Origin: a virus
Taxonomy: Duplodnaviria > Caudoviricetes
IMG/VR virus record: IMGVR_UViG_3300010354_000120
Location: 1 to 53,647 of that record
Length of the DNA: 53,647 nt
Reading direction: 5' to 3' (one strand)
How positions within the stretch are numbered: the first letter of the stretch is position 1; each line of letters opens with the position of its first letter. A program made the translations under genes and the position numbers. The notes under the pieces were generated by a model. That model had not been told where the DNA came from, searched no databases, and saw only the letters and a list, made by a program, of their open reading frames with translations. This document shows, one piece after another, positions 2,611-44,271 of the stretch.

Positions 2611-2940
2611 ATGTTGGGAAAACATTACCTATTAAATCTCTATGATTGCCCCTTTCATCTTTTAAACGATGAAAGGTTTCTTATTGATTTACTGGAGAAC
2701 GCAGCATCTGCGAGTGGGGCAACGGTAGTCCAGACAATCTTCAAAAAATTTGATCCACAGGGTGTAACTGTATTAACTCTTTTGGAAGAAAGTCACATTT
2801 CAATTCACACTTGGCCGGAAACTGGTGAAGCAGCTGTTGACATTTTTACATGCGGAGATGCGAATCCTAAGGTCGGATGTGATATAATTTGTATTCAGTT
2901 GAAATCTGAAAATCACAATATGAGTTACATCGAAAGATAA
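2611..2940 (+). CDS. speD: S-adenosylmethionine decarboxylase proenzyme (pyruvoyl-dependent)
   Basis: GKH, FDPQGVT, LEESHISIHTWPE (E|S autocleavage site), DIFTCG. Confidence 0.93.
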   Translation: MLGKHYLLNLYDCPFHLLNDERFLIDLLENAASASGATVVQTIFKKFDPQGVTVLTLLEESHISIHTWPETGEAAVDIFTCGDANPKVGCDIICIQLKSENHNMSYIER

Positions 2941-2975
2941 CTTAATGGGATTTGGTATAAGATTGATACTATTTT

Positions 2976-2989
2976 GTATAAATTGCTAC
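2976..2989. promoter_or_regulatory. putative NtcA-binding box
   Basis: GTA-TAAATTGC-TAC = GTA-N8-TAC; imperfect second copy GTA-N9-TAC at 2955-2969; lies just upstream of glutamine aptamers. Confidence 0.6.
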
Positions 2990-3007
2990 TAAAAATCAGG
3001 ATTTCGA

Positions 3008-3015
3008 CATAAATA
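3008..3015 (+). promoter_or_regulatory. T4-type late promoter variant
   Basis: CATAAATA (consensus TATAAATA) about 10 nt before the aptamer start. Confidence 0.55.
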
Positions 3016-3025
3016 TATTTGCAAT

Positions 3026-3295
3026 CGTTCATTTACTCTACGGAGTAAACGGAAGTAAGGAGACAGAAGGAACGTAGACGTTCATTACTATCATGTTCGA
3101 AATAGCTCTTCCACTAGTGCTCTCATGTTCCCAGGCAAATATTCTAATGATTAGAATATATGGCAAGGATTATCCGCCAAGAATTGAAAGGGAATTGTTT
3201 AGAGAGATTAAAGATCTCTCACCAAAATGGTGCGAGTGGAGACTCTGGAATGATGCTTAAATGATAGTAACGGAAGTATGCCGCCTGAAGGAACG
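3026..3295 (+). ncRNA. tandem/interlocked glutamine riboswitch (glnA RNA motif-like), two aptamer units
   Basis: Two copies of CGTTCA-[P2 stem]-CGGAAGTA-N8-GAAGGAACG (3026-3074 and 3079-3295); P2a TTTACTC-TACG-GAGTAAA; P2b TTACTATCAT(3085-3094)/ATGATAGTAA(3261-3270); upstream of a DUF4278-type gene. Confidence 0.85.
3093..3260 (+). CDS. 55-aa small protein nested in the P2 loop of the second glutamine aptamer
   Basis: MFEIALPLVLSCSQANILMIRIYGKDYPPRIERELFREIKDLSPKWCEWRLWNDA*; resembles 44080..44271 (LSCSxA...RExI...C). Confidence 0.75.
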   Translation: MFEIALPLVLSCSQANILMIRIYGKDYPPRIERELFREIKDLSPKWCEWRLWNDA

Positions 3296-3326
3296 CTCTT
3301 TTGTTTAGAGCATAGGAGTAACCAAA

Positions 3327-3503
3327 ATGGCAAGAGCTTGTTATCGTGGTGTTTGGTATGACACTGAAACACCCAAGAAGGAATTTGTGGAATGGCATCG
3401 GAATGTTGATGCAAAAGATCATTCATATCGTGGACAGCATTATTATCCCATTCAAACTATGACTGAGGATACTAAAAAGAAAATTTACAAAGGTATGTTC
3501 TAA
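3327..3503 (+). CDS. DUF4278-type small protein (IF17/GifB N-terminal-like)
   Basis: MARACYRGVWYDT...HSYRGQHY, two YRG motifs; SD AGGAG at 3314-3318; downstream of glutamine aptamers. Confidence 0.8.
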   Translation: MARACYRGVWYDTETPKKEFVEWHRNVDAKDHSYRGQHYYPIQTMTEDTKKKIYKGMF

Positions 3504-3616
3504 TGGCAAACGCACTACAGGTAATCGGTGGTATTACACTATTGCAGGTTGTGTTTATATGCTCAATCTCATTCTTTGTATGCAAAATTTGTCCCAACGT
3601 AAGAGGTAAAAAATGA
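3503..3616 (+). CDS. 37-aa hydrophobic micro-protein
   Basis: MANALQVIGGITLLQVVFICSISFFVCKICPNVRGKK*, TAATG coupling to the DUF4278 ORF. Confidence 0.55.
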   Translation: MANALQVIGGITLLQVVFICSISFFVCKICPNVRGKK

Positions 3617-3717
3617 TTACAAATTCTCTAGTTCCACTTCTTATTATCCGCAACAAAATTAATAAAGATAAGAAACTGAAGGATGCTCAACTAATCAGAG
3701 CAATGCAAACCAAATAA
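3613..3717 (+). CDS. 34-aa basic micro-protein
   Basis: MITNSLVPLLIIRNKINKDKKLKDAQLIRAMQTK*, SD GAGG and ATGA overlap; ends just before the terminator. Confidence 0.55.
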   Translation: MITNSLVPLLIIRNKINKDKKLKDAQLIRAMQTK

Positions 3718-3724
3718 ATTTTCT

Positions 3725-3751
3725 GGGGGTCTTGACACCCCCTATTTTTTT
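3725..3751 (+). terminator. intrinsic terminator
   Basis: GGGGGT-CTTGAC-ACCCCC followed by TATTTTTTT. Confidence 0.8.
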
Positions 3752-3760
3752 GTGTATACT
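3732..3760 (+). promoter_or_regulatory. sigma70-type promoter embedded in the terminator
   Basis: TTGACA(3732-3737)-17-TATACT(3755-3760). Confidence 0.85.
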
Positions 3761-3985: not shown

Positions 3986-4738
3986 ATGAAGCCAGTAAAA
4001 GCAAAGGACCTTGTTGAACTTGATGGACATATGGGCGTTGTTGCCCTTCAGAAAACGCCTCTTCCGCAAACAGTAATTTGGCAGGCAGGTAAGAATGATT
4101 ACAGTGAGGACCCCATTCATACCAAGAAACCTCCAAATGAAACTAAATCGGGTGAGTGGGTCATTGAGCAACTTCTAGCAAATGATCGCGGTCACTGGGG
4201 ACCTCTGGAGCACCCAGCAATTACTTTTGATTGCTATGGGTTCGTTCACAATGTTCCAATGCAAGCACGAACTCACCGAGTTGGTGTATCCTTTGATGTT
4301 CAATCTCAAAGATATACTGGTCGTCGTGTTATGAAAGTTGCTAAAGGAGAACTCAAACCAGAAGAGGTATTTTATGTTCGCCCTCCTGGTCTCTATTTGG
4401 ACCGTAAGGGGCACAAATACGAGTGGACACACAAGGACTACCAATGTGAGTTATGTCGCTGTGTAGAAGCATCTGCGCACTACTCAGACGGTTATGAGAG
4501 GGGTATGGCAGAGGAGCACCTGAGGGATTATCTACCACAGAACATTCGCCAGAACTTTGTAGTCTCATTCTCTCTGAGAGCAGCACTTCACTTCCTGGAT
4601 CTTCGTGCTAAACTGGATGCACAATTGGAAATTCAGGCATTATGTGAGTGCATGGTTCCTGTGATTAAGGATTGGGTTCCGGAAGTGTTTAGTTACTATG
4701 AAACAAAACGTTTACATAAAGCAAGACTGTCTCCATGA
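3986..4738 (+). CDS. thyX: FAD-dependent thymidylate synthase
   Basis: GHWGPLEH, RTHRVGVSFDVQSQRY ThyX motif, LHFLDLRAKLDAQLEIQ. Confidence 0.93.
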   Translation: MKPVKAKDLVELDGHMGVVALQKTPLPQTVIWQAGKNDYSEDPIHTKKPPNETKSGEWVIEQLLANDRGHWGPLEHPAITFDCYGFVHNVPMQARTHRVGVSFDVQSQRYTGRRVMKVAKGELKPEEVFYVRPPGLYLDRKGHKYEWTHKDYQCELCRCVEASAHYSDGYERGMAEEHLRDYLPQNIRQNFVVSFSLRAALHFLDLRAKLDAQLEIQALCECMVPVIKDWVPEVFSYYETKRLHKARLSP

Positions 4739-28031: not shown

Positions 28032-28112
28032 GCGAGAGTGGTGTAACGGTAGCCACGCTGCGCTTAGAACGCAGTGTCGAAAGACGTAGGGGTTCGATTC
28101 CCCTCTCTCGCA
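28032..28112 (+). tRNA. tRNA-Leu (anticodon TAG)
   Basis: Acceptor GCGAGAG/CTCTCGC, anticodon arm CTGCG-CTTAGAA-CGCAG, long variable arm, T-arm AGGGG-TTCGATT-CCCCT, discriminator A, no encoded CCA. Confidence 0.95.
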
Positions 28113-44079: not shown

Positions 44080-44271
44080 ATGATTCACGTCTTTCTATTT
44101 GTTCCAATTTTTATGTCATCAGTTACACTTAGTTGTTCGGATGCACAAAAAATTGCCTCATCTGTAATGTTGGCAAAGGGTCTTACAATGACTCAGAGAG
44201 AAGAAATTATATCCAATCTACAGGAAACTGTTTCTGAATGTCCTCTCACAACAAAGGAATCTAAAAAATGA
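44080..44271 (+). CDS. hypothetical protein related to the riboswitch-nested ORF
   Basis: TLSCSDAQKI...QREEIISNLQETVSEC; preceded by CATAAATA at 44051. Confidence 0.7.
   Translation: MIHVFLFVPIFMSSVTLSCSDAQKIASSVMLAKGLTMTQREEIISNLQETVSECPLTTKESKK

Follow-up and report, generated by a model that had tools for sequence, protein, structure and literature searches.

A complete small protein-coding gene lies within the P2 loop of a predicted glutamine riboswitch aptamer in IMG/VR virus record IMGVR_UViG_3300010354_000120 (53,647 nt, analyzed at its full length and hereafter termed the window), a T4-like cyanophage contig whose completeness is estimated at ~25%. The leader that carries this gene contains two glutamine-I (glnA) aptamers in tandem, i.e., aptamer 1 ends at 3078, aptamer 2 begins at 3079, and both precede a single downstream gene that starts at 3327. 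Aptamer 2 is divided by the nested gene into a 5' half and a 3' half (Table 1). We are highly confident in this architecture, namely, a real gene situated inside a conserved aptamer that is still able to fold.

The split aptamer and its P2 stem

The P2 arms of aptamer 2 form a perfect 10-bp inverted repeat, which a repeat search extended to arms at 3078-3094 and 3261-3277 with a spacing of 166 nt. The nested open reading frame (ORF) occupies the loop exactly, with A3093 and T3094 of its start codon inside the 5' arm and its TAA stop codon (3258-3260) adjoining the 3' arm. The initial annotation had described the 10-bp repeat and had placed the ORF in the P2 loop of the second glutamine aptamer; the repeat and all of its coordinates were confirmed by the sequence and by the repeat search, and the placement was upheld by the conservation of both aptamer halves and by compensatory changes in P2. 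On the 5' side, the CGTTCA at 3079-3084 is a direct repeat of aptamer 1 (3026-3033) and is complementary to GAACG at 3291-3295. On the 3' side, the 27-nt core ACGGAAGTA...GAAGGAACG (3269-3295) shares 81% identity with aptamer 1 (3048-3074). Aptamer 2 keeps the core nucleotides CGUUCA ... ACGGAAGUA ... GAAGGAACG together with the complementarity of its P1 strands. In cmscan searches of Rfam, aptamer 1 passed the gathering score of the glutamine-I family RF01739 (45 bits vs. 35; E = 1.1e-6; model positions 1-53), and positions 3261-3300 taken alone gave a 5'-truncated match to the same family over 3261-3299 (18.6 bits; E = 0.017; model positions 11-53). RF01739 was the top match of 4227 families for this isolated 3' half, and the 5' half alone, which at 21 nt is too short, gave no cmscan match.

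Split aptamers of the window and of 73 loci (cited here by L numbers), 88 in all, were compared in their P2 stems. They supply 17 different combinations of 8-nt arms and were placed in register by a script of our own that used the conserved flanks as anchors; the set includes related sequences. Results showed that standard pairs occurred in 83 of the 85 cells at the first five P2 positions when the arms were in register, and that only 26-40 of the 85 cells paired when the 3' partner was slid by 1-3 bases. Positions 2-5 each displayed three or four pair types. Compensatory changes were evident between the window and L004 or L026, and the comparison with L026 contained double changes at position 5 (T-A to A-T), position 6 (A-T to G-C), and position 10 (T-A to A-T). 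These comparisons indicate that the P2 stem is kept by compensatory changes and is under selection. Likewise, the compensatory nature of the stem changes and the recurrence of the arrangement in orthologous and distant loci, described below, indicate that the bracketing of the gene by aptamer halves is beyond chance.

Among the collected split aptamers, the last pairs of P2 always include, on the 5' side, the A of the start codon and usually its U as well. The stop codon lies within the 3' arm in L012. The ORFs of the freshwater and marine clades cross both the 3' arm and the conserved core and end at the UGA or UAA of ...GACUGAAGGAACG. Since the ORF runs through the arm and the core in these two clades, their C-terminal residues (..IDAKAD, ..WDAND) are encoded by the aptamer. 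Synonymous diversity was lower in aptamer-overlapping codons than elsewhere (pS, the proportion of synonymous differences, 0.29 vs. 0.55). In phage S-SRM01 (L095, 640-670), the usual UGA in the aptamer 3' half is GGA, and the nested ORF is therefore six codons longer, reading across the P1 3' strand until a TAA is reached. Plain aptamers of the same loci have P2 helices of 4-13 bp with varied loops; the distal end of P2 is thus free to vary, and an insert at that site is structurally reasonable.

Folding predictions were also consistent with closure of the stem around the gene. In the ligand-free ensemble of 3015-3335, the ten P2 pairs had probabilities of 0.67-0.98, and forcing P1 and P2 of aptamer 2 to form together cost 4.6 kcal/mol (-78.4 vs. 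-83.0). The mean P2 pair probability was >=0.5 in 16 of 19 natural split aptamers. For short stems (4-5 bp), closure was far more probable with natural loops than with codon-shuffled ones (0.78 vs. 0.01 in L045, 0.95 vs. 0.06 in L081, and 0.84 vs. 0.03 in S-SRM01), and therefore the coding sequences seem to be arranged so that their ends meet.

The nested gene, its protein and its recurrence

Orthologs of the nested protein were found in five IMG/VR contigs (91-96% protein identity), and differences in the DNA alignment were mostly at third codon positions. By Nei-Gojobori estimates, the ratio of nonsynonymous to synonymous substitution (dN/dS) between the window and L026 was 0.036 (dN = 0.071; dS = 1.99), and that between the window and L024 was 0.061. 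A clade of 50-residue proteins obtained by an IMG/VR profile scan (53 loci; 30 unique coding sequences) gave a median dN/dS of 0.096 over 426 pairs, with a maximum of 0.376; its variable columns were distributed 26/10/42 over the three codon positions, and the two other forward frames were closed in all 30 unique sequences. A second sample, collected solely by a DNA pattern of the marine-type aptamer halves, comprised at least 120 further IMG/VR contigs. Among the matches listed, 119 of 120 had an uninterrupted frame between the AUG and a stop codon that lies within the aptamer, and ATG-to-stop lengths were 159, 162, 165, 168, or 171 nt, with a single exception of 161 nt. These pattern-found loci encode at least 105 distinct proteins, all belonging to one clade. 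Taken together, the codon statistics indicate that the nested ORF is a real gene whose loop lengths change in steps of three. The initial annotation had already regarded it as such and had proposed examining homologous loops for a conserved reading frame, a check whose outcome favored the finding. That the loop is instead a non-coding structured RNA in which the ORF arose by chance is hardly credible, since this explanation, although in keeping with an RNA that is predicted to be well folded, is contradicted by the codon-position pattern, the dN/dS values, the steps of three, the open frames, and the existence of a protein family.

Alignment of the nested proteins showed Cys12, Ala15, and Cys47 to be invariant, and an AlphaFold2 model of the protein was a helical hairpin with a predicted local distance difference test (pLDDT) score of 84. 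The nested ORF of the window matched phrog_504 at E = 0.0077 (16.9 bits; profile positions 1-49 of 53), the copy in phage S-TIM54, which occupies the same nested position, matched it at 8e-22, and the nested-family profile matched 97 representative clusters at E <= 0.001. By these profile comparisons and the invariant residues, the nested protein is probably a member of the phrog_504-like, cyanophage-specific family of small proteins. In GenBank, phrog_504 genes are labeled "hypothetical protein," "T4-LIKE GC: 430," or "similar to gp197." No Pfam family was matched; a Foldseek search of the PDB with the nested model returned nothing at E <= 0.001 (best E = 2.5), a BFVD structure search returned only uncharacterized cyanophage proteins, and the ESM Atlas only unnamed viral clusters. 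Four long, multi-stretch profile matches (P0009, P0034, P0042, and P0066) were dropped, as they look like low-complexity or repeat matches. A scan of genome contigs with the single protein found no relative in host genomes, although such a scan finds close relatives only and is weak evidence of absence.

A free-standing ORF elsewhere in the window (44080-44271) matched phrog_504 at E = 2e-7. The likeness between this ORF and the nested protein, which the initial annotation had taken as support for the gene, proved real insofar as both match phrog_504 and hhalign with the nested-ORF profile gave E = 3.7e-4 (probability 36%); it is weak in direct comparison (BLASTP E = 0.15). Because of these values, we consider the free-standing ORF a probable but distant paralog of the nested gene. 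Its N-terminus is signal-peptide-like, as are those of the 68-aa ORFs of aptamer 1 described below. A lipoprotein or signal-peptide N-terminus was also considered, by eye, for the nested aptamer-2 proteins and was rejected; since only 7-11 residues precede the first Cys, no export of these proteins is claimed.

The properties of the protein bear on whether the nested ORF could be mainly a regulatory leader or upstream ORF (uORF), i.e., whether the act of translation matters, as a timer or gate for folding of aptamer 2, and not the product. An AUG within P2 and a stop codon in or beside the aptamer would suit such a role, and riboswitch-uORF interplay is reportedly known from mycobacterial B12 elements, to judge from the title of a 2024 reference by Kipkorir et al. 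We nevertheless think this explanation improbable, given the strong purifying selection on the whole protein with its three invariant residues, the confident helical-hairpin model, and the free-standing homologs that lack aptamer halves (44080-44271 in the window, L030, and L090/L091).

Bracketing of homologs by the aptamer halves, which the initial annotation had put forward as something to look for, was found to be recurrent. An IMG/VR profile scan with the nested protein yielded 71 loci, and the aptamer halves bracket the gene on both sides in 62 of them. The nine others comprise two deletion variants (L024/L025), four free-standing genes (L030, L089, L090, and L091), L056 and L074, which are cut by contig ends, and L036, in which the 3' P1 strand is decayed. 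The decayed aptamer-2 strand of L036 (720-760) reads GACTAAAGAAACA and is followed by sequence unlike the usual DUF4278 leader; L036 may represent a lineage that is losing the switch. A tblastn search with the S-TIM54 copy found homologs in 306 GenBank phage records, and the split aptamer was present in 19 of 19 phages inspected, which are a sample of the 306 and not a census (S-TIM54, DSL-LC02, DSL-LC03, S-SRM01, S-RIM2, S-CAM1, S-RIM44, S-SM2, Syn10, ACG-2014a, S-CAM4, ACG-2014d, Syn33, S-CAM8, S-P4, S-CAM22, P-RSM1, S-TIM61, and S-MS29). Identity among nested proteins of divergent phages falls to ~30%. The location within a riboswitch aptamer was not recorded in any GenBank annotation examined, and the DSL-LC03 ORF is unannotated.

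Genes also occur inside the first aptamer. In 22 of the 71 loci, the halves of aptamer 1 are ~250 nt apart and surround a 68-codon ORF (e.g., L045, 329-560), the product of which has a signal-peptide-like N-terminus (MTKALLLLAWVPLL...) and the Cys...Cys spacing of the nested family; the stem is UCCUAU/AUAGGA. This 68-aa ORF had no PHROG or Pfam match, and hhalign (E = 0.095) does not establish homology with the nested family. A 66-codon ORF lies inside aptamer 1 of S-TIM54 (L022, 955-1190), S-TIM61 (L110), S-CAM1 (L098), and Syn10 (L101); that of S-TIM54 matched phrog_6471 at 2.4e-37, and its stem, UCUUAUG/CAUAAGA, holds both the AUG and the UAA. The leaders of these four phages thus contain two genes in two aptamers. 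In the marine pattern set, aptamer-1 halves were >60 nt apart in 36 of 112 assessable loci among the matches listed. P2 loops thus house no fewer than two or three kinds of small gene, each with its AUG in the stem.

Several loci differ from the window in informative ways. The tandem aptamers of phage S-PM2 lack an insert and have an ordinary P2 hairpin, and only one aptamer, of the plain type, is present in each of L018 and L020. The second aptamer of S-PM2 (L017, 1369-1470) consists of the P2 of the first aptamer of L015 (1240-1470) joined to a 3' half of the second-aptamer type. A deletion between the ACGCAA repeats of the two aptamers could conceivably have removed the nested ORF of S-PM2 and left a hybrid, intact aptamer. 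In L002/L003, the same contigs as L024/L025, aptamer 1 is missing its 5' half and aptamer 2 its 3' half (region at ~1930-2230, aligned to 2941-3340 of the window), and the loss from aptamer 2 falls between two AGTAAC repeats. Both genes are intact there (96% and 84% protein identity), and the stop codon of the nested gene overlaps the DUF4278 Shine-Dalgarno sequence. Since the genes persist without the switch, L002/L003 support the ORF as a gene in its own right.

The breadth of this sample also bears on whether the gene is a selfish or neutral insertion into a hairpin loop, with the halves and stem persisting merely through recent common descent. Cyanophage genomes do shuffle small genes, and at least three ORF types (phrog_504, phrog_6471, and the 68-aa signal-peptide type) are found in P2 loops, both of which speak for such insertion. 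It is, however, very improbable as an explanation of an arrangement that extends to very divergent phages, with ~30% protein identity and at least 105 distinct proteins in one clade, and in which stems stay paired by way of double changes while dS between orthologs is saturated (1.4-2.0).

Translation, folding and glutamine

The initial annotation assigned the downstream gene to DUF4278. Its protein matched phrog_5049 (3e-16) and, against PF14105 itself, scored 19.8 bits (E = 0.0011), below the cut-off of 25.3; because the gathering threshold was missed and phrog_5049 was matched, we refer to the gene as DUF4278-like. Its orthologs come after the split aptamer in related loci. According to an earlier study, glutamine riboswitches turn on translation of DUF4278/gifB, and they are proposed to do so by releasing a sequence otherwise paired with the ribosome-binding site (Klahn 2018, PMC6212724). 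In the window, a CUCUU stretch of the linker is, by its sequence, able to base-pair with the Shine-Dalgarno sequence (AGGAG, 3314-3318), and a comparable CUCUUU...AAGGAG arrangement occurs in the flanks of the 50-aa clade. The Shine-Dalgarno region (3314-3321, AGGAGTAAC) also resembles the P2 3' arms of both aptamers (3041-3049, GGAGTAAAC, and 3263-3270, GATAGTAAC); therefore, the P2 5' arms could pair with it, which may constitute an anti-Shine-Dalgarno mechanism. A consensus scan found no terminator-like site on the + strand between the tandem aptamers and the DUF4278-like gene.

We favor, as a fairly probable explanation of the whole, a nested gene within a maintained aptamer 2, with translation and folding excluding one another and glutamine setting the choice between the two genes. 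The anatomy would in itself make the two mutually exclusive. P2 would be opened by a 30S subunit bound at the nested AUG and by any ribosome within the ORF or terminating at its end, and in most clades part of the core would be opened as well; therefore aptamer 2 could not be folded on a translated message. Conversely, a folded aptamer 2 stabilized by glutamine would hide the nested AUG in a helix. We tentatively suggest that the element is a translation-gated split riboswitch, in which the aptamer would assemble only on an untranslated nested gene and its glutamine-bound form would block the AUG of that gene. At high glutamine, aptamer 2 would then be stable, the nested gene off, and the DUF4278-like gene on, and at low glutamine the reverse would apply; this direction is proposed because glutamine riboswitches are ON switches for DUF4278/gifB. 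Such fully reciprocal control of the nested and DUF4278-like genes, to which the anatomy and the ON behavior of the class point, is possible but rather doubtful.

The alternative hairpin between the aptamers, formed shortly before the nested start codon by the 3' P1 strand of aptamer 1 and the 5' P1 strand of aptamer 2, competes with both P1 helices. In the ligand-free ensemble, its GAACG/CGUUC pairing had a probability of ~0.8 and both P1 helices were at ~0. The hairpin may have a functional role and, together with aptamer 1, would place a further level of control ahead of the nested AUG. It is also central to the principal competing explanation, serial control, according to which aptamer 1 alone senses glutamine and frees the nested AUG by disrupting this hairpin, translation of the DUF4278 gene is coupled to that of the nested gene, and both products rise together; the 5' half of aptamer 2 would serve only to pair with the 3' P1 strand of aptamer 1 as an expression platform close to the nested AUG, and the terminating ribosome would open the anti-Shine-Dalgarno hairpin. 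Serial control fits the anatomy about as well as the reciprocal logic does. Only a few bases separate the inter-aptamer hairpin from the AUG region, the nested ORFs terminate within the 3' half or directly next to it, leaving ~40-70 nt to the start of the DUF4278 gene, and the L002/L003 stop codon on the DUF4278 Shine-Dalgarno sequence is a directly coupled arrangement that survives; the off-consensus 3' half of marine versions, considered below, likewise agrees with it. We nonetheless judge serial control unlikely, as it leaves unexplained the compensatory upkeep of P2 across 140-190 nt and the excess of natural over shuffled P2 closure, and the 3' half in the window is canonical though it lies outside the ORF.

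Several observations weigh against the favored explanation of mutually exclusive translation and folding. The split aptamer 2 as a whole (3079-3295) received no cmscan call for RF01739, either at the gathering threshold or at E <= 10; this is because the 166-nt insert in the P2 loop exceeds what the model allows, and the core is unaffected by that failure. No consistent Shine-Dalgarno sequence was found upstream of the nested AUG in the window, the clade flanks, or the GenBank phages. P2 closure is predicted to be weak in L033 (0.14) and S-RIM2 (0.06), and the P2 of the S-TIM54 split aptamer has only three contiguous pairs. P2 probably forms with or without ligand, and ligand-dependent masking of the AUG is an assumption. 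The 3' half of marine and freshwater versions (CGCAAA..GACUGAAGGAACG) departs from the Rfam consensus, for which reason glutamine binding by these versions is less certain, and the unsplit S-PM2 aptamer, which has a marine-type 3' half, scored 33.3 bits against the gathering score of 35. Finally, the riboswitch is dispensable for the two genes in at least one lineage (L002/L003) and hence is not essential everywhere.

Related systems and neighboring features

Tandem glnA RNAs have been reported previously (Weinberg 2010, PMC2864571; Klahn 2018, PMC6212724), and a later census lists 157 doublets and 4 triplets, a tandem being recognized there only in the absence of an intervening ORF (Sherlock et al. 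2022, PMC9481103). Under that rule, a split aptamer would be missed, since in addition the model does not call it. The present leader shares with tandem glutamine-I riboswitches upstream of DUF4278/gifB the aptamer class, the tandem layout, and the kind of downstream gene; it differs in that the second aptamer, and in some phages the first as well, is split by a gene in the P2 loop, here of 166 nt.

Group I introns carry homing-endonuclease ORFs in peripheral loops. As in the present case, a gene there lies in a terminal loop with helices closing around it, and translation is set against folding; however, the leader described here has no ribozyme, splicing, or endonuclease, its nested proteins are without a Pfam match, its closing helix includes the start codon, and its ORF can enter the ligand-binding core. 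RNAIII/hld and SgrS/SgrT are dual-function, trans-acting base-pairing RNAs with a small ORF. In them, too, a single RNA regulates through its structure and carries a short coding region, whereas in this instance a predicted cis-acting, metabolite-binding aptamer is interrupted by the ORF. In mycobacterial B12 elements, translation of a small leader ORF is also said, on the strength of a title, to interact with riboswitch control; that uORF is reportedly located beyond the aptamer, in the downstream expression platform, and does not encode a conserved protein family, unlike the ORF described here, which is inside an aptamer helix and does.

An ORF inside a glutamine or any other riboswitch aptamer was undescribed in the literature searched, supplementary tables that possibly list phage glnA RNAs being outside that search. 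The parts are known, i.e., the glutamine-I aptamer, the tandem layout, the DUF4278 target, and phrog_504 genes, and it is their combination that is undescribed in that literature. Riboswitch aptamers are treated by search models and surveys as compact non-coding domains, and here one is interrupted by a conserved gene; in most clades the aptamer overlaps the gene, part of the core doubling as C-terminal codons. Since covariance models miss split aptamers, such elements are hidden from current tools. The leader also offers a natural system for testing translation against ligand-dependent folding on one molecule, with S-PM2 and L002/L003 as controls, and it would tie an abundant, uncharacterized cyanophage gene family to glutamine sensing and hence to the control of host nitrogen metabolism during infection. 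If the reciprocal logic is true, one leader would act as a two-state device that yields the nested two-Cys protein at low glutamine or the IF17-like protein at high glutamine, and stacked two-gene units would let cyanophages switch small host-manipulating proteins according to host nitrogen status.

Table 1. Positions of the leader elements, nested gene, and other features in the window.
Feature	Position	Strand	Basis or remark
S-adenosylmethionine decarboxylase gene	2611-2940		Neighboring gene; Pfam AdoMet_dc, 1e-35
Aptamer 1, ordinary glutamine-I (glnA) aptamer with short P2 hairpin	3024-3078	+	RF01739
Alternative inter-aptamer hairpin, aptamer 1 3' P1 GAACG x aptamer 2 5' P1 CGUUC	3070-3083	+	Inverted-repeat search
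Aptamer 2 5' half, conserved CGUUCA (DNA CGTTCA)	3079-3084	+	P1 5' strand, 3079-3083
Aptamer 2 P2 5' arm, TTACTATCAT (RNA UUACUAUCAU)	3085-3094	+	Last two bases are A and U of the nested AUG
Nested gene, 55 aa, ATG start	3093-3260	+	ORF list; dN/dS; phrog_504-like
Aptamer 2 P2 3' arm, ATGATAGTAA (RNA AUGAUAGUAA)	3261-3270	+	Adjoins the TAA stop codon
Aptamer 2 conserved core and P1 3' strand, CGGAAGUA ... GAAGGAACG	3271-3295	+	P1 3' strand, 3291-3295
Linker with small hairpin GCUCU...AGAGC	3296-3326	+	Hairpin in minimum free energy fold
DUF4278-like (IF17-like) gene, 58 aa	3327-3503	+	PF14105 below threshold; phrog_5049
Terminator-like hairpin and T-run	3725-3742	+	Consensus scan only
250-codon ORF	3986-4738		Other neighbor
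Free-standing ORF, 63 aa, hydrophobic N-terminus, same Cys...Cys pattern	44080-44271	+	Not bracketed by aptamer halves

Two small ORFs follow the DUF4278-like gene, at 3503-3616 (37 aa, hydrophobic and Cys-rich) and 3613-3717 (34 aa). They show overlap of start and stop codons and precede the hairpin at 3725-3742; neither had a significant family match. This hairpin probably ends the transcription unit, judging from a consensus scan. Within 3725-3760, it overlaps a strong sigma-70-like promoter match, with TTGACA and TATACT separated by a 17-nt spacer (11 of 12 positions). Elsewhere in the window, a tRNA gene with a long variable arm is present at 28032-28112 (Rfam tRNA, 56.3 bits).

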